IMG/VR virus record: IMGVR_UViG_2541047502_000017
Length of the DNA stretch: 5,650 nucleotides
Source: a virus
Lineage: Duplodnaviria; Heunggongvirae; Uroviricota; Caudoviricetes
Direction: 5' to 3' (one strand)
Part shown: positions 1 to 5,650 of the stretch, piece after piece
Layout of the letters: each line of letters begins with the position of its first letter
Position numbering within the stretch: position 1 is the first letter of the stretch
Made by a program: the position numbers and the translations under genes
Notes under the pieces: model-generated
What the model was told of the DNA's origin: nothing
Databases searched by the model: none
Seen by the model: the letters and a program-made list of their open reading frames with translations, nothing else

Positions 1-1578
1 CTGTTACCCGTTTATGCACAGAAAACCGGGAAAACCACCGATGAAATTGCTGCCATGCTGGCGGATGAGACCTGGATGTCCGGTGCCGAATGTCTGGCAC
101 ATGGATTTGCTGATCAGGTGACGCCAGCCGTTAAGGCAATGGCATGTATTCAGTCAAAACGTACAGAGGAATTTAAAAAGATGCCGGAATCCATTCGAAA
201 CATGATTACTCCGCCACGCAACAGTGCTCCACGCGTACAGGATGATGGACCTGCAGCCTCCCGGACGCCAGTGCAGGCAGCAGCACCTGTGGTGGATGAA
301 AACAGTATCCGTGCGCAGGTACTGGCAGAGCAAAAAGCGCGTGTAAACGGTATTAATGATCTGTTTGCCATGTTTGGCGGGCGTTATCAGACGCTGCAGG
401 CTCAGTGTCTTGCCGATCCTGAATGTTCGCTGGAGCAGGCCCGCGAAAAGCTGTTGAACGAGATGGGGCGCGAGTCCACGCCATCTAATAAAAATACCCC
501 GGCTCATATTTATGCCGGAAACGGTAATTTTGTGGGGGATGGGATCCGCCAGGCGCTGATGGCGCGTGCCGGATTTGAAAAAACCGAACGTGATAATGTC
601 TACAACGGGATGACCCTGCGTGAATATGCCCGTATGTCACTGACTGAACGGGGTATTGGGGTTTCCAGTTATAACCCGATGCAGATGGTCGGTGCGGCGT
701 TCACACACAGTACGTCTGACTTCGGTAATATTCTGCTGGATGTTGCGAACAAAGCCATTCTGCAGGGCTGGGAAGATGCCCCTGAAACCTATGAACAGTG
801 GACGCGGAAAGGTCAGTTGTCTGATTTTAAAATTGCCCATCGTGTGGGTATGGGGGGCTTCAGTGCTCTGCGTCAGGTGCGTGAAGGGGCGGAATATAAA
901 TACGTCACCACCGGAGATAAACAGGCCACTATTGCACTGGCGACCTATGGCGAGCTGTTCAGTATCACCCGTCAGGCCATTATCAATGATGATCTGAATA
1001 TGCTGACCGATGTCCCGATGAAACTGGGCCGTGCGGCGAAATCCACTATTGCCGATCTGGTTTATGCCATTCTGACGTCTAACCCGAAAATCTCCACAGA
1101 TAATGTAAGTCTGTTCGATAAAGCGAAACATGCAAACGTACTGGAGAGCGCTGCAATGGACGTGGCATCGCTGGATAAAGCCCGCCAGTTGATGCGCGTT
1201 CAGAAAGAGGGGGAGCGTCATCTGAATATTCGTCCTGCGTTCGTACTGGTACCGACGGCGATGGAGTCTGTTGCTAACCAGGTCATTCGCTCCTCAAGTG
1301 TCAAGGGGGCTGACATTAACGCCGGTATTATTAACCCGGTGAAAGATTTTGCGACCGTTATTGCAGAGCCTCGTCTTGATGATAACAGCCAGACCACCTT
1401 CTACCTGGCTGCGTCAAAAGGCTCCGATACGATTGAAGTGGCTTATCTCAACGGTGTGGATACGCCATATATTGATCAGATGGAGGGCTTCAGTGTGGAT
1501 GGCGTGACAACGAAAGTGCGTATTGACGCCGGTGTCGCGCCAGTTGATCACCGCGGTCTGGTGAAATGTACGGCGTAA
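1..1578 (+). CDS. Fused prohead protease / scaffold-like linker / HK97-fold major capsid protein; 3' portion only (5' end lies upstream of the window)
   Basis: Frame 1 is open from base 1 (no stop before the ATG at 55 listed in the ORF track), so the gene enters from upstream. The first ~30 codons (…KTTDEIAAMLADETWMSGAECLAHGFADQV) resemble the C-terminal end of ClpP/S49-type phage prohead proteases. A Pro/Ala/Gln-rich, charged linker follows, then ~350 aa that read like an HK97-fold major capsid protein. Stop TAA at 1576-1578. Confidence 0.8.
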   Translation: MLPVYAQKTGKTTDEIAAMLADETWMSGAECLAHGFADQVTPAVKAMACIQSKRTEEFKKMPESIRNMITPPRNSAPRVQDDGPAASRTPVQAAAPVVDENSIRAQVLAEQKARVNGINDLFAMFGGRYQTLQAQCLADPECSLEQAREKLLNEMGRESTPSNKNTPAHIYAGNGNFVGDGIRQALMARAGFEKTERDNVYNGMTLREYARMSLTERGIGVSSYNPMQMVGAAFTHSTSDFGNILLDVANKAILQGWEDAPETYEQWTRKGQLSDFKIAHRVGMGGFSALRQVREGAEYKYVTTGDKQATIALATYGELFSITRQAIINDDLNMLTDVPMKLGRAAKSTIADLVYAILTSNPKISTDNVSLFDKAKHANVLESAAMDVASLDKARQLMRVQKEGERHLNIRPAFVLVPTAMESVANQVIRSSSVKGADINAGIINPVKDFATVIAEPRLDDNSQTTFYLAASKGSDTIEVAYLNGVDTPYIDQMEGFSVDGVTTKVRIDAGVAPVDHRGLVKCTA

Positions 1579-1601
1579 ACGTCGCAGACAACAACTCTGA
1601 T

Positions 1602-1621
1602 GGCCCGTAAGGGCTTTTTTT
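1602..1621 (+). terminator. Possible weak intrinsic terminator/attenuator after the capsid gene
   Basis: GGCCC-GTAA-GGGC hairpin (4-5 bp GC stem, GNRA-type tetraloop) at 1602-1614, immediately followed by a run of 7 T at 1615-1621, 24 nt after the capsid stop. The short stem makes it weak. Confidence 0.35.
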
Positions 1622-1632
1622 GTACCTGAAAT

Positions 1633-1651
1633 CAGCCCCTGAACGGGGCTG
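1633..1651 (+). other. Perfect 7-bp stem-loop just upstream of the next gene's ribosome-binding site (possible RNA stability or processing element)
   Basis: CAGCCCC (1633-1639), loop TGAAC, GGGGCTG (1645-1651) form a perfect inverted repeat. No T-run follows. The GGAGA Shine-Dalgarno at 1654-1658 and the ATG at 1665 come right after. Confidence 0.3.
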
Positions 1652-1664
1652 TGCGGAGACAGTT

Positions 1665-1988
1665 ATGGCAAAGAATTTTGTAGAAGAAGGAAAAACGGTG
1701 GCGATTGTTGCCAGTGCAGCCATCAGCAGCGGAGATCTGGTGCAGGTGGGCGATGTTTTTGCGGTGGCGCTGACCGATATTCCACAGGGTGAAACAGGCG
1801 ACGGCATGACCGAAGGTGTGTTTATGCTGCCTAAGCTGAAAACGGATGACATGAAAACGGGTAAGAAGGTTTATCTGAAGTCAGGAAAAGTTCAGCTGAC
1901 TAACAGCGGCTCTGATCCGCTGGTCGGGGTTGTCTGGGCAGATGCCGGAACCAGTGCAGAAGAAGTGCCGGTAAAACTCAATGTCTGA
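1665..1988 (+). CDS. Small head protein, DUF2190-like (putative capsid decoration/cement protein)
   Basis: 107-aa ORF. ATG at 1665 is preceded by GGAGA at 1654-1658; the ORF-track start at 1620 is a TTG lying inside the hairpin/T-run and is unlikely. Gly/Val-rich, beta-rich composition and position immediately after the major capsid gene. The family name is from memory and not verified. Stop TGA at 1986-1988 overlaps the next start. Confidence 0.65.
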   Translation: MAKNFVEEGKTVAIVASAAISSGDLVQVGDVFAVALTDIPQGETGDGMTEGVFMLPKLKTDDMKTGKKVYLKSGKVQLTNSGSDPLVGVVWADAGTSAEEVPVKLNV

Positions 1989-2256
1989 TCCCTTTTCCCG
2001 GCTGGCAGCGCGTATGGATGCTATCACGGTCAGAAAGATGGGAAAGACAGCCTCGATTAATGATGTCGATATGACTGTGATCCCGGGAGAAACACTGGCA
2101 GAGCTGAATGCTCTGTCCGGACCTGCGGTCTCTCTGGTGGTGTTTTCTTCGGGATACCGCCCACGGCGCGGGGATCGCGTTGTTTATGACGGACAACAAT
2201 GGACGGTCACACGGCATGAACGCTTTAACGGTAAGCCAATGATCTTTATTGAGTAA
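1981..2256 (+). CDS. Head-tail joining (head completion) protein, lambda FII-like
   Basis: 91-aa ORF. Its ATG at 1981 overlaps the upstream stop (ATGTCTGA, 8-nt overlap), indicating translational coupling. Recalled similarity to lambda gpFII at both ends (FSRLAARMDAI versus FDNLFDAAIARAD; PRRGDRVVYDGQQWTV versus LRRGDTLTIGEENFWV). Stop TAA at 2254-2256. Confidence 0.65.
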   Translation: MSDPFSRLAARMDAITVRKMGKTASINDVDMTVIPGETLAELNALSGPAVSLVVFSSGYRPRRGDRVVYDGQQWTVTRHERFNGKPMIFIE

Positions 2257-2267
2257 AGAGGTGTGGG

Positions 2268-2846
2268 ATGAAGGGGCTTGAGAATGCCATCCGCAATCTG
2301 AACAGCCTTGATACCCGTATGGTGCCACAGGCCAGCGCATGGGCGATAAACCGTGTGGCACAGAAAGCGGGCTCGGTTGCCACCCGGCAGGTTGCCGGGA
2401 ATACCGTTGCGGGAGATAACCAGGTGAAAGGGATCCCCCTGAAACTGGTTCGTCAGCGTGTCCGGGTGTTTAAAGCCAGTCCGTCAGGAAAAATGACGGC
2501 CAGGATCCGCGTTAACCGGGGCAATCTGCCCGCCATTAAGCTGGGGACAGCCCGGGTCAGACTGGCCCAGCGTGGTGGAAAACTGCAGTACCGTGGCAGT
2601 GTGCTGAAGGTGGGTAAATATCTTTTCCGGGATGCGTTTATTCAGCAACTGGCGAATGGTCGCTGGCATGTGATGCGGCGTATTGATGGCAAAAATCGTT
2701 ACCCCATTGATGTGGTGAAAATCCCGCTGTCCGGACCGCTGACACAGGCATTTGAAGATGCCCGCGACCGCATCATTGCTGCGGAAATGCCGAAACAGCT
2801 GGGGTATGCACTGAAACAACAACTGAGGTTATGGCTGACCCGATGA
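2268..2846 (+). CDS. Tail completion protein, lambda Z-like
   Basis: 192 aa, the same length as lambda gpZ. N-terminus MKGLENAIRNL…AWAINRVAQKA and C-terminus …NGRWHVMRRIDGKNRYPIDVVKIP…LGYALKQQLR resemble gpZ as I recall it. AGAGGTG ribosome-binding site at 2257-2263. Synteny FII-Z-U-V. Confidence 0.8.
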   Translation: MKGLENAIRNLNSLDTRMVPQASAWAINRVAQKAGSVATRQVAGNTVAGDNQVKGIPLKLVRQRVRVFKASPSGKMTARIRVNRGNLPAIKLGTARVRLAQRGGKLQYRGSVLKVGKYLFRDAFIQQLANGRWHVMRRIDGKNRYPIDVVKIPLSGPLTQAFEDARDRIIAAEMPKQLGYALKQQLRLWLTR

Positions 2847-3244
2847 ACCGACATACACAAATCCGCCAGGTCGTACTGGCACGCCTTCGGGAACAGTGTG
2901 GAGACAGCGCCACGTTTTTTGACGGGCTTCCGGCATTTGTTGATGCGCAGGAACTGCCTGCCGTGGCGGTGTGGCTGAGTGATGCTCAGTACACCGGAAA
3001 AATGACGGATGAAGATGACTGGCAGGCTGTTCTGCATATTGCTGTCTTCATCCGGGCACAGGCACCGGATTCAGAGCTGGATATGTGGATGGAGAGCACC
3101 ATTTTCCCGGCCCTGAATGATGTATCGGCACTTTCCGGACTCATCGACACCCTGATCCCACTCGGTTTTAACTATCAACGTGATAATGAGATGGCCACCT
3201 GGGCGATGGCGGAAATCACGTACCAGATCACGTACACGAATTAA
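2843..3244 (+). CDS. Tail terminator protein, lambda U-like
   Basis: Start ATG at 2843 overlaps the Z stop in an ATGA arrangement (TGA 2844-2846). The product MNRHTQIRQVVLARL…ATFFDGLPAFVDAQELPAVAVWLSDAQYTG…DSELDMWMES…ITYQITY closely parallels lambda gpU (…ATFFDGRPAVFDE…PAVAVYL…DSELDAWMES…LTYVITY). An in-frame ATG at 2831 is an alternative start. Stop TAA at 3242-3244. Confidence 0.85.
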   Translation: MNRHTQIRQVVLARLREQCGDSATFFDGLPAFVDAQELPAVAVWLSDAQYTGKMTDEDDWQAVLHIAVFIRAQAPDSELDMWMESTIFPALNDVSALSGLIDTLIPLGFNYQRDNEMATWAMAEITYQITYTN

Positions 3245-3254
3245 GGAGGTGGTA

Positions 3255-3998
3255 ATGACCACGCCAAATCCACTGGCAAAGACGAAAGGTGCGGGGACGA
3301 CGTTCTGGATGTATACCGGCAACGGCGATGCGTTTGCGAACCCTTTGTCGGACACTGACTGGCTGCGTCTTGCGATGGTGAAGGATCTGCAACCTGGCGA
3401 AATGACCGCTGATGCAGAAGATGACACTTATCTCGATGATGAAGATGCAGACTGGAAAACGACAACCCAGGGGCAGAAATCCGTTGGTGATACTTCGGCG
3501 ACGCTGGCCTGGCGTCCGGGTGACAGCGGGCAGAAAAAACTGGTTCAGTTGTTCGACTCCGGTGAAGTCTGCGCGTTTCGTATCAAATATCCCAACGGCA
3601 CTGTTGATGTTTTCCGCGGCTGGCTGAGCTCACTGGGTAAAACCATTGCCTCAAAAGACGTGATGACCCGCACAGTGAAAATCAGCGGTGTGGGGCGTCC
3701 ATATCTGGCAGAGGAGGGCACTGAAACTGTGGGCGTTACCGGGCTGACGGTGGCACCGGCATCCGCCAGTGTCAATGTGGGAGCAACCACCACGCTGACC
3801 TTTACAGTAAAACCTGACGGAGCCAGTGACAAAGCGATCAGTGTGCATTCGACAGATCCACAGACAGCCACTGTGACCCTGAACGGACTTGTGGCCACGG
3901 TGAAAGGCGTGAAGCAGGGCAGCGTCAGCATTGTGGGCATGACCGCTGACGGGAATTTTGTGGCTGTGGCTGCGGTGACTGTCAGCGCTGCAGGTTAA
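3255..3998 (+). CDS. Major tail tube protein, lambda V-like, with C-terminal Ig-like (Big_2-type) domain
   Basis: Strong ribosome-binding site AAGGAGGT at 3243-3250, 4 nt before the ATG at 3255. The N-terminus MTTPNPLAKTKGAGTTFWMYTGNGDAFANPLSDTDW…YLDDEDADW…GDTSATLAWRPGDSGQ…YPNGTVDVFRGWLSSLG matches lambda gpV nearly motif for motif. The C-terminal ~90 aa (GLTVAPASASVNVGATTTLTFTVKPDG…) look like a Big_2 Ig-like domain. The ORF-track start at 3180 lies inside the U gene and is rejected. Stop TAA at 3996-3998. Confidence 0.9.
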   Translation: MTTPNPLAKTKGAGTTFWMYTGNGDAFANPLSDTDWLRLAMVKDLQPGEMTADAEDDTYLDDEDADWKTTTQGQKSVGDTSATLAWRPGDSGQKKLVQLFDSGEVCAFRIKYPNGTVDVFRGWLSSLGKTIASKDVMTRTVKISGVGRPYLAEEGTETVGVTGLTVAPASASVNVGATTTLTFTVKPDGASDKAISVHSTDPQTATVTLNGLVATVKGVKQGSVSIVGMTADGNFVAVAAVTVSAAG

Positions 3999-4018
3999 CA
4001 GGACGATACTCATCATTT

Positions 4019-4042
4019 GCCCCGGTTATCCGGGGCTTTTTT
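4019..4042 (+). terminator. Rho-independent terminator/attenuator between the major tail gene and the chaperone gene
   Basis: GCCCCGG (4019-4025), loop TTAT, CCGGGGC (4030-4036) give a perfect 7-bp GC-rich stem, followed directly by TTTTTT (4037-4042). It starts 20 nt after the V-like stop and lies just upstream of the G-like ribosome-binding site. Confidence 0.55.
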
Positions 4043-4055
4043 GCAGGTGGAGAAC

Positions 4056-4445
4056 ATGATGTTTCTGAAACAGGGCACGTTTAATTATGAAAAGCAGTCC
4101 GTGGTGCTCAGTGAGCTGTCCGGGCTGCAGAGAATTGAATATCTGGCGTTTGTTCAGCAGCGAACGGCAAAGTTTGATGCCGAAGAGGGAGAACTGCCGG
4201 AGGCTGAACGACAGATTGCTTTTCTGCGGATGGGGATGGATATCAATGCCTGGCTGGTTTCCCGCTCACTGTGGAATGCGGAACAGTCTCAGGATGTTGA
4301 GACGCTTTGCGCATCCGTTATTACAACATGGTCGTATGATGCCCTGGGAGCGGGGGCGGAGATGGTTCTGTCGCTGAGCGGTATGGGAGCCATTGAGAAT
4401 GCCGGGGATTTGGAGCATGAGGTGCTGACGCCGGAAAAGTCCTGA
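4056..4445 (+). CDS. Tail assembly chaperone, lambda G-like
   Basis: MMFLKQGTFNYEKQSVVLSELSGLQRIEYLAF… parallels lambda gpG (MFLKTESFEHNGVTVTLSELSALQRIEHLA…). AGGTGGAG ribosome-binding site at 4045-4052. The start is ATG 4056 or the adjacent ATG 4059. The ORF-track start at 4017 is a TTG inside the terminator hairpin. Stop TGA at 4443-4445. Confidence 0.85.
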   Translation: MMFLKQGTFNYEKQSVVLSELSGLQRIEYLAFVQQRTAKFDAEEGELPEAERQIAFLRMGMDINAWLVSRSLWNAEQSQDVETLCASVITTWSYDALGAGAEMVLSLSGMGAIENAGDLEHEVLTPEKS

Positions 4446-4783
4446 CGCGGGAAATGCAGTTTGTCATGCGGCTTGCCCGGGAGTTCCGGCGGGCAGACTG
4501 GCGGCGGATGCTGTCGGAAATGTCGGCCACTGAGCTTGGTGAGTGGGGCGATTATTTCCGGATGCAGAGCTTCAGTGATGTGTGGATGGATGCGCAGTTT
4601 GCCTCGCTGAAGGCATTGATCGTGAGAATGGTGTCCGGTAGCAGTGATGCTGCGGTGGCTGATTTCAGCCTTTTACCGGAAGAGAACGGGATACCGGAGC
4701 GAACGGACGAAGAACTGATGCATCTTGGGGAAGGTATTTCCGGAGGTGTGCGTTATGGACCAGATAGCCAACCTGGTCATTGA
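4056..4783 (+). CDS. Tail assembly chaperone G-T fusion product, made by a -1 frameshift near 4433-4439 (two-segment CDS: 4056 to about 4439 in frame 0, then about 4439 to 4783 in frame -1)
   Basis: The downstream ORF (4454-4783 in the track) is in the -1 frame relative to G, overlaps the G 3' end, and has no ribosome-binding site of its own. This is the conserved G/G-T architecture upstream of tape measure genes in long-tailed phages. Stop TGA at 4781-4783. Confidence 0.7.
4433..4439 (+). other. Putative -1 programmed ribosomal frameshift site (heptamer G GAA AAG) for the G-T fusion
   Basis: The -1 frame is open only from 4421 (stop TGA at 4418-4420) and the G frame stops at 4443, so the shift must occur within 4421-4442. 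The only slippery element in that interval is GAA-AAG at 4434-4439, preceded by G. It differs by one base from lambda's G GGA AAG. Confidence 0.55.
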
Positions 4784-5390
4784 TTTGGGGATTGATGCGG
4801 CAGAGTTTAAAAATGAAATTCCCCGTATCAAAAACCTTCTGAATGGTGCAGCCAGCGATGCAGAACGGTCTTCTGCCCGTATGCAGCGTTTTATGGAGCG
4901 TCAGACTCAGGCCGCCCGGCAGACAATGCAGGCGGCTTCTTCGGCTGCAACAGCCGCATCCGTCCATGCGCAGACGGTGGAGAAGAGCGCACAGGCTCAT
5001 GAACGCATGGCCCGCGAGGTGGAGCAAACCCGCCAGCGTATGGAGGCACTGAGCCAGAAAATGCGCGAGGAACAGGCGCAGGCCATGGCTCTGGCGGAGG
5101 CTCAGGATAAAGCGGCTGCTGCGTTTTATCGTCAGATTGACAGTGTGAAACAGGCCGGTGCGGGGCTGCAGGAATTACAGCGTATTCAGCAACAGATCCG
5201 ACAGGCCAGAAACAGTGGCGGGATTGGTCAGCAGGATTATCTGGCGCTGATTTCTGAGGTTACGGCGAAAACCCGTGTTCTTACACAGGCTGAGGAAGAG
5301 GCTACCCGACAGAAAGTGGCGTTTATCCGTCAGCTTAAAGAGCAGGCAACCCGCCAGAATCTTTCTTCTTCTGAGTTGCTTCGTGCGTAA
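4755..5390 (+). pseudogene. Tape measure protein gene, N-terminal ~212 codons only; truncated by an insertion sequence
   Basis: GGAGGTG ribosome-binding site at 4742-4748 and ATG at 4755, overlapping the end of T by 29 nt. The N-terminus MDQIANLVIDLGIDAAEFKNE… resembles lambda gpH (…VGDLVVDLSLDAARFDEQ…), followed by Ala/Gln/Arg-rich coiled-coil-like sequence typical of tape measure proteins. Tape measure proteins of tails this type are usually 700-1100 aa, but this frame stops at TAA 5388-5390, which sits inside the GTAAGCG terminal motif of the IS. Confidence 0.7.
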
Positions 5391-5650
5391 GCGTACATCC
5401 TGAACCGTCTGGTCAGAATCTGACGAATTAGACAAAGTGGTGTCCACCAAATAAGTAGTGGGAACCAAAGTATCAGATATGCAGAAAAATGTGACTCCCG
5501 GCAGGCGAAAAGGCTGCCCTAATTATCCTCCCGAATTTAAACAGCAGCTCGTTGCTGCCTCCTGTGAACCCGGGATATCCATCTCAAAACTTGCTCTTGA
5601 AAATGGCATTAACGCCAATCTGTTGTTCAAATGGCGACAACAATGGCGCG
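5387..5650 (+). mobile_element. IS66-family insertion sequence, left end (continues beyond the window)
   Basis: The sequence beginning GTAAGCG at 5387 matches the 5'-GTAAGCG terminal inverted-repeat motif I recall for the IS66 family. About 90 bp further in, an ORF begins whose product resembles IS66-family TnpA/orf1. It interrupts an otherwise conserved phage gene. Confidence 0.6.
5479..5650 (+). CDS. IS66-family transposase accessory protein TnpA (orf1), N-terminal 57 codons; 3' end beyond the window
   Basis: Frame 1 is open from the ATG at 5479 to the window end. Translation: MQKNVTPGRRKGCPNYPPEFKQQLVAASCEPGISISKLALENGINANLLFKWRQQWR, with a helix-turn-helix-like segment and the ANLL…W(R/K)QQW motif typical of IS66-family orf1 proteins. 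It is not in the ORF track because it has no stop within the window. Confidence 0.65.
   Translation, partial: MQKNVTPGRRKGCPNYPPEFKQQLVAASCEPGISISKLALENGINANLLFKWRQQWR

Follow-up and report, generated by a model that had tools for sequence, protein, structure and literature searches.

The window, by which we mean the whole 5,650-nt stretch of DNA analysed here, was identified from its sequence as part of an mEp460/cdtI-type lambdoid prophage of E. coli, with positions 1-5391 displaying 98-99% identity to phages mEp460, phi458, Ayreon and cdtI, all of them temperate lambdoid phages of this host. It carries late genes on the plus strand, from the capsid part of a protease-capsid fusion to the 5' part of a tape measure gene (Table 1). 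Between the gene for the major tail (tube) protein, V, and that for the tail assembly chaperone, G, lies a non-coding element at 4019-4042 that reads GCCCCGG-TTAT-CCGGGGC and then TTTTTT; 20 nt separate it from the V stop codon on one side and 13 nt from the ATG of G on the other. A previous sequence-only reading had described a perfect 7-bp GC stem with a 4-nt loop and six T here, placed between the major tail gene and the G/G-T chaperone genes. The sequence, a terminator scan, a repeat search and folding agree on the structure, and the Pfam families of the flanking genes (Phage_TTP_12, Phage_TAC_2, Phage_tail_T) bear out its position. The mEp460 counterpart of the V gene is likewise annotated as major tail protein.

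Table 1. Features of the window, with the hairpins of the V-G junction in other lineages in the last nine rows.
Feature	Position	Strand	Evidence or detail
C-terminal capsid part of protease-capsid fusion	55-1578	+	Pfam Phage_capsid_4
Companion terminator-like hairpin, GGCCC-GTAA-GGGCT + 7 T	1602..1621	+	scan; dG -8.3; past protease/capsid fusion gene (stop 1576-1578)
Perfect 7-bp hairpin CAGCCCC-TGAAC-GGGGCTG, without T-run	1633..1651	+	inverted-repeat search; just before cement gene RBS
Cement protein	1665-1988	+	Pfam
Major tail (tube) protein gene, lambda V type, C-terminal Ig-like domain	3255..3998	+	Pfam Phage_TTP_12 1.2e-66, Big_2 1.3e-11; stop TAA 3996-3998
Spacer, 20 nt, V stop codon to hairpin	3999..4018	+	sequence
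Hairpin, 7 G-C pairs	4019..4036	+	stem 4019-4025 / 4030-4036, loop TTAT 4026-4029
T-run (U-tract), six T	4037..4042	+	sequence; abuts stem directly
GGTGGAG, putative Shine-Dalgarno-like motif for G gene	4046..4052	+	read from sequence; 3 nt past T-run
Tail assembly chaperone gene, lambda G type	4056..4445	+	Pfam Phage_TAC_2 1.8e-39; mEp460 annotation
T-type frame, G-T frameshift partner	4454..4783	+	Pfam Phage_tail_T 3.9e-15; -1 relative to G by frame arithmetic
Tape measure gene, 5' part, cut short in window	4755..5390	+	mEp460 annotation; ORF stops at 5390
Gifsy-1			GCCCCGG-TT-CCGGGGC, then TTCTATGG
Fels-1			GCCCCGG-CT-CCGGGGC, then TTTGCGGG
Citrobacter prophage (L013)			GCCCCG-ACTC-CGGGGC, then TTTGCGGG
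Gifsy-2			degenerate, 5' arm lost; T7 tract kept
Symbiopectobacterium (L015/L017)			two tandem hairpins: AGCAGCG..., T7 tract after it; then GCCCCGCG..., TTATTCGG after it
Atlantibacter prophages (L018/19)			GGGGGC-GTGA-GCCCCC, then TTACGG
L178			GCCTCG-GAAA-CGAGGC, then TTTTTATT
L179			GCGCCCC-GAAA-GGGGCG, then TTTTTATT
L221			CGCCCC-GAAA-GGGGCG, then CTTTTAT

A consensus scan ranked 4019-4042 as the top terminator-like site of the window (7 pairs, 7 of them G-C, loop of 4), and the repeat search of the window returned the same perfect 7-nt arms at 4019-4036. Folding of the isolated hairpin gave a dG of -15.0 kcal/mol, and its d'Aubenton-Carafa-type score (after d'Aubenton-Carafa et al., 1990) was 40.9 against a threshold of about 0. 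The minimum free energy (MFE) z-score of the 71-nt context 3990-4060 was -1.14, in a test that is insensitive to one short hairpin in G+C-rich flanks, and a motif-specific shuffle test took its place. When the window was shuffled 3000 times with dinucleotide counts preserved, a single shuffle gave a site as strong as 4019-4042 on either strand, the requirement being 7 perfect pairs with 6 or more G-C and, in the 8 positions that follow, 6 or more T. The stem-loop is G+C-rich and within the dimensions of intrinsic terminators (about 5-14 pairs, loop of 3-8 nt), the U-tract follows directly 3' of the stem, and the whole is non-coding, lies past a stop codon and is on the same strand as all genes of the window. 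Judged by sequence, 4019-4042 carries every feature of an intrinsic (Rho-independent) terminator.

The signal is directed along the plus strand. No T-run follows the 4019-4036 hairpin on the reverse strand, where an A-run precedes it instead, and a scan of the minus strand returned no site. A bidirectional terminator, or a terminator of a minus-strand gene, was rejected on the lack of a minus-strand T-run and of a credible minus-strand gene. A dispersed repeat family of the REP/BIME type was also rejected, since a search of the mEp460 genome (44.5 kb) that allowed up to 3 mismatches returned the hairpin sequence only once. A scan of 3990-4060 against Rfam gave no covariance-model match. At E ≤ 1, the window gave a single Rfam match, a weak one to the Fluoride riboswitch family at 526-609 within the coding sequence of the capsid fusion; it scored 16.7 bits (E = 0.49) where the gathering score is 34, and it is almost certainly due to chance.

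The element is not a new observation, because the mEp460 record (NC_019716/JQ182728) already annotates a "rho-independent terminator" at 8751..8774, which maps exactly onto 4019-4042 of the window. In mEp460 the hairpin takes the form GCCCCGGTTATTCGGGGC, whose apical pair is G-U; element and position are otherwise those of the window, with no difference of substance, and both are computational predictions. A second "rho-independent terminator" of the mEp460 record (6334..6353) corresponds to 1602-1621 of the window. The Ayreon record (MF807953) lists a terminator feature under the matching V-G stretch, a match made by listing and not by coordinates. The element at 4019-4042 is thus already known, real but ordinary. 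The mEp460 record has a third such feature (9389..9406), at about 4657-4674 of the window within the T coding frame (GGCTGATTTCAGCC followed by TTTTA); this site is weak, lies in coding sequence and was missed by the scan used here. A published sRNA of E. coli K1, the ArcA-regulated sRNA-17 (PMC7719688), maps to mEp460 30932-30956. An overlap of this sRNA of mEp460-type prophages with the window was considered and rejected, since the window does not contain its primer sequence, which falls in the early region at mEp460 30932.

Only two intergenic gaps of the window are sizeable, one past the capsid gene (1579-1664) and one past V (3999-4055), and both contain hairpins. Two of the three perfect 7-bp hairpin-type inverted repeats of the window fall in these gaps. 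The whole-context MFE z-score at the post-capsid site was -0.75. Between Nu1 and J of mEp460, a block of 18 kb, no plus-strand hairpins other than those past the capsid gene and past V ran straight into five or more consecutive T; the next one comes after the lom moron. The chance that two sites would follow exactly the capsid and V genes among 17 junctions is about 1 in 136 by a rough, post hoc estimate. The capsid gap of the window has a tandem layout of a terminator and a second hairpin without a T-run, as does the V-G gap of the Symbiopectobacterium loci. With a permissive scan, mEp460 1-20000 returned 39 terminator-like sites compared to 17.7 ± 4.3 in shuffles, many of the extra ones on the minus strand and inside genes; promoter-like sites in the same stretch were depleted (6 compared to 13.3 ± 2.8 in shuffles).

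Past the hairpin, a consensus scan of the window and of mEp460 8.8-12.9 kb found no plus-strand sigma-70-like promoter, in agreement with the earlier placement of the element inside a late operon. Because no plus-strand promoter-like site was found downstream, G, T and the tape measure gene H would depend on read-through of the element, G being the first gene past it and thus the first to do so. The V product would be needed in far larger amounts than those of the genes past the element: lambda-type tails contain about 32 hexameric rings of V and a few copies of H, while G and GT are absent from virions.

Loci with G homologues were taken from species-representative genomes and IMG/VR, and 87 of them with a G protein at least 92% identical were treated as close relatives. 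The hairpin is kept in all 87, with exactly the window sequence in 64, and the T-run has a length of six in 80 loci, five in 5 and seven in 2. The sequence-only reading had proposed looking for the hairpin in related prophages and had named its absence from close relatives as grounds for abandoning the idea; this comparison leaves the claim standing. In 69 distinct haplotypes of 630 nt, the hairpin changed only at its two apical pairs and its loop (G4025A, C4030T/G, C4031A, T4027C), apart from one haplotype without C4036 that has a G-U closing pair; the lower five pairs were otherwise invariant. All stem variants score as terminators (d = 14.6-32.6, compared to 40.9 for the window). The spacer 3999-4018 was variable at 4 of 20 positions. 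Two of 16 positions varied in the lower stem and T-run compared to 15 of 41 in the rest of the gap (one-sided Fisher p = 0.067), so that the apparently greater conservation of stem and T-run is suggestive and not significant. No double compensatory change in the stem was observed among the relatives of this homologous group, which are 95-100% identical; the sequences are too similar for covariation to be seen. In the flanking genes, third codon positions were variable at 51 of 93 in the tail of V and at 22 of 97 in G. Over all sites of the 69 haplotypes, the C-terminal Ig-like part of V (3719-3995) was variable at 112 of 277 and G (4056-4348) at 40 of 293. The hairpin therefore sits where diversity changes, from the V C-terminus to G, which may be a mosaic boundary.

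The sequence-only reading knew of no equivalent element at this position in lambda, and this proved correct. The lambda V gene runs to 9695 and G begins at 9711; the 15 nt between them (TAATCCGGAGAGTCAGCGATG) form no hairpin. Lambda and the window phage have homologous V, G, T and H genes in the same order and Q-dependent late transcription, and they have a hairpin after the capsid gene (E in lambda) in common; it is the post-V hairpin that lambda lacks. The lambda hairpin, in the E-FI gap at about 7160-7202 (2161-2203 of locus L002), is a 7-bp structure, ATGGCCC-TTCG-GGGCCAT, followed by TTGTTTCTCT, a T-rich tail. Lambda-identical V-G sequence also occurred on short contigs (L024-L036, L039, L042), several named with about 1x coverage, from assemblies whose labels include Kitasatospora, Chromatium, Paenibacillus, Shewanella and Pseudomonas, among others. 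This looks like contamination of the assemblies with lambda control DNA.

In the diverged loci checked, the upstream ORF was always of the lambda V type with the conserved PNPLAPVKGAGTT N-terminus, and the V-G gap was bimodal. It was either 11-23 nt without a hairpin, in six of the lineages sampled (lambda, L014, L020, L022, L037, L222), or 28-77 nt with a G+C-rich hairpin, degenerate in Gifsy-2. In different lineages, the gap is occupied by G+C-rich hairpins that are all perfect over 6-8 bp and have at least five stem sequences unrelated to one another, and because a stable V-G hairpin has been kept or re-invented with so many unrelated stems, we argue for selection on the structure. A proper U-tract is present in about half of the hairpin-bearing lineages, the other half being without one; good T-runs behind differing stems are those of L178, L179 and the first hairpin of L015/L017. 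Terminator scores were marginal (about -5 to 0) in Gifsy-1, Fels-1, L013, L018/19 and L221. Stable hairpins (-11.6 to -15 kcal/mol) with poor T-runs were found in Gifsy-1, Fels-1, L013 and L018/19 and as the second hairpin of L015/L017. A stable hairpin is therefore kept at the V-G site independently of the U-tract, as expected of a hairpin that stabilises an mRNA 3' end, and the sister lineages that keep it without a usable T-run point to a function that does not need termination. A set of 54 near-identical Gifsy-1-type loci, found with the Gifsy-1 G protein, has the stem unchanged in 54/54 and adds no diversity. One Serratia marcescens contig (L016, 2265-2500) has a V-G gap of 236 nt in which an insertion of about 160 nt interrupts the second hairpin of the L015/L017 type (GCCCCGCGTA...). 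The insertion is itself strongly folding and may be a small mobile element.

Terminators at comparable positions have been predicted in unrelated phages. In SPP1, ARNold predicted terminators at 8775-8815 and 11255-11304, where the MCP gene 13 ends at 8777, the TTP gene 17.1* ends at 11279 and the chaperone gene 17.5 starts at 11363 (PMC6316719). These are the same two positions of the late gene order as in the window, one behind capsid gene 13, the other between tail tube gene 17.1/17.1* and the frameshifted chaperones; however, the sequences are unrelated, the host is Gram-positive (Bacillus) and further terminators are predicted elsewhere in the SPP1 late genes. SPP1 is not known to have Q-type antitermination. 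In mycobacteriophage Corndog, a predicted terminator is the stem-loop on the right side of the gene for the major tail subunit (PMC4351075). The Corndog structure differs in its 12-bp bulged stem, its weak TTTCT tail, its unrelated sequence and the host polymerase involved. In T7, the leaky terminator T-phi follows capsid gene 10 and its termination efficiency has been measured. T7 and the window are alike in that a terminator immediately follows the structural gene of highest abundance and that the genes downstream need read-through. The difference is that T7 uses its own RNA polymerase, whereas the window phage would use the host polymerase modified by Q, at a terminator that is predicted only. 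ONT-cappable-seq has indicated that the majority of terminators in phages are leaky and that inefficient ones balance expression, with T7 cited as the example (PMC9163698). In the literature, a search for directly mapped transcripts at junctions of tail-tube and chaperone genes, or for Term-seq data from late operons of lambdoid phages, returned only predicted terminators and general statements, and PMC10914365 contained nothing specific. No 3'-end, RNA-seq, half-life or in vitro termination results for mEp460/cdtI-type phages were found in the literature.

The sequence-only reading proposed that a partial terminator at 4019-4042 lowers transcription of G, T and H relative to V. As a reading of the sequence this is reasonable, plausible but unproven; it omits antitermination by Q. 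Phage mEp460 encodes a protein of the Q-lambda family (Pfam PF03589, 9.6e-54), and we assume that the prophage of the window has its own Q gene outside the window, as do all relatives with such a late-operon layout. A nozzle built by Q-lambda on the RNA exit channel keeps terminator hairpins from forming, and Q-lambda acts processively over tens of thousands of nt (PMC9388147). Given the Q-lambda-family antiterminator of mEp460, weak termination of late transcripts is expected, which weakens the partial-terminator reading. By this reasoning, Q-modified late transcripts should mostly pass 4019-4042, and termination may affect no more than a few percent of genuine late transcripts.

The reading that we prefer, with a probability of about one half, is that the element combines a leaky operon-internal terminator with a 3'-end hairpin and so favours tail-tube mRNA over chaperone and tape-measure mRNA. 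RNA polymerase not modified by Q would halt efficiently at 4019-4042, whereas Q-modified polymerase from the late promoter would mostly read through, a minority of its transcripts ending there. Those read-through transcripts that are cut downstream would be trimmed back by 3' exonucleases to the -15 kcal/mol hairpin. Termination and trimming would both yield mRNAs that end after the tail-tube gene with a protected 3' end, and the message for V, needed at roughly 200 copies per virion, would outlast and outnumber the messages for the tape measure protein, present in few copies, and for the chaperones. The similar post-capsid signal would do the same for the head. A real termination component is favoured because the U-tract is conserved here and in three other lineages, and a post-transcriptional component because hairpin-only lineages and tandem second hairpins exist. 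The effect on the mRNA ratio may be small or partly post-transcriptional. Because lambda makes the same proteins in similar ratios without a V-G hairpin, the element is an optional refinement that the design can dispense with.

A broader proposal, to which we give limited credence, is that under Q there is no terminator action and that the element is one of a class of hairpins, gained repeatedly behind capsid and tail-tube genes, that work post-transcriptionally at 3' ends or in processing and set the ratios of structural-protein mRNAs in lambdoid late operons. Such a class would explain both the sister lineages in which the stem is kept and the T-run lost and the tandems of a terminator plus a second hairpin. 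More speculatively, hairpins without an adjacent T-run could behave as the 'Q-dependent' non-standard terminators hypothesised in PMC9388147.

Two narrower explanations, both unlikely in our view, each rest on one half of the element. If only the stem mattered, the hairpin would be a purely post-transcriptional device, a 3'-to-5' exonuclease barrier or processing landmark that stabilises the tail-tube message, with negligible termination and an incidental T-run. The homologous stem GCCCCGG...CCGGGGC does persist in Gifsy-1, Fels-1 and the Citrobacter prophage in front of the poor tails listed in Table 1, the Atlantibacter stem precedes TTACGG, hairpins without a T-run stand behind a terminator at 1633-1651 and in the V-G gap of L015/L017, and Q should suppress any co-transcriptional action of the hairpin. 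However, a T-run of 5-7 in 87/87 close relatives, and canonical T-runs after unrelated stems in at least three other lineages, would be unexpected on this account. The T-run is what the second explanation builds on: since an exonuclease barrier alone would not need it, its retention in all close relatives, together with the strong canonical terminator features, could mark a safety insulator that stops polymerase not modified by Q, arising from stray initiation in the prophage or from read-through in lysogeny, and has no part in lytic ratios. Q-loaded polymerase is termination-deficient, so only unmodified polymerases would be stopped efficiently (PMC9388147). Any junction would serve an insulator, yet the only two strong plus-strand sites between Nu1 and J follow the capsid and tail-tube genes, and the non-lambdoid SPP1 has the same two positions. 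The shortage of promoter-like sites in mEp460 1-20 kb relative to shuffles would moreover leave little stray initiation to block, and sister lineages keep the hairpin without the T-run.

That the element has no selected function and is a neutral leftover, such as an ancestral module-boundary terminator or a recombination joint between the V C-terminus and G, is very improbable: lambda and five other lineages do without a hairpin, Gifsy-2 has a degenerate version that lost its 5' arm and kept its T-run, and the hairpin lies at the change in diversity, but all 87 close relatives keep it with changes mainly in the apical pairs and loop, at least five unrelated perfect stems occupy the same gap in different lineages, and every gap of at least 28 nt holds a hairpin except the degenerate one of Gifsy-2.

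The element has little significance beyond correct annotation of the site. If measured, the element would provide a small, clean example of a temperate phage adding RNA-level to translational control of the ratio of tail tube to chaperone and tape measure proteins, and it would show how far a strong intrinsic terminator is still effective in vivo when polymerase carries Q. The comparison across lineages, with two states of the V-G junction and with hairpins that have or lack a T-run, gives a modest lead for mRNA processing in the late operons of lambdoid phages.

At the 3' end of the window (5363-5650, with a junction near 5388-5391), the tape measure ORF comes to a stop at 5390, and the mEp460-like sequence gives out at 5386-5391. 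Beyond it, starting with GTAAGCG, the window matches an IS66-like element and its tnpA accessory gene with 96.9% identity. None of the complete E. coli genomes of the collection spanned the junction of tape measure gene and insertion sequence at 80% or more of the query. From these matches, the tape measure gene appears to be interrupted by an insertion sequence, and the prophage of the window is for this reason probably tail-defective.
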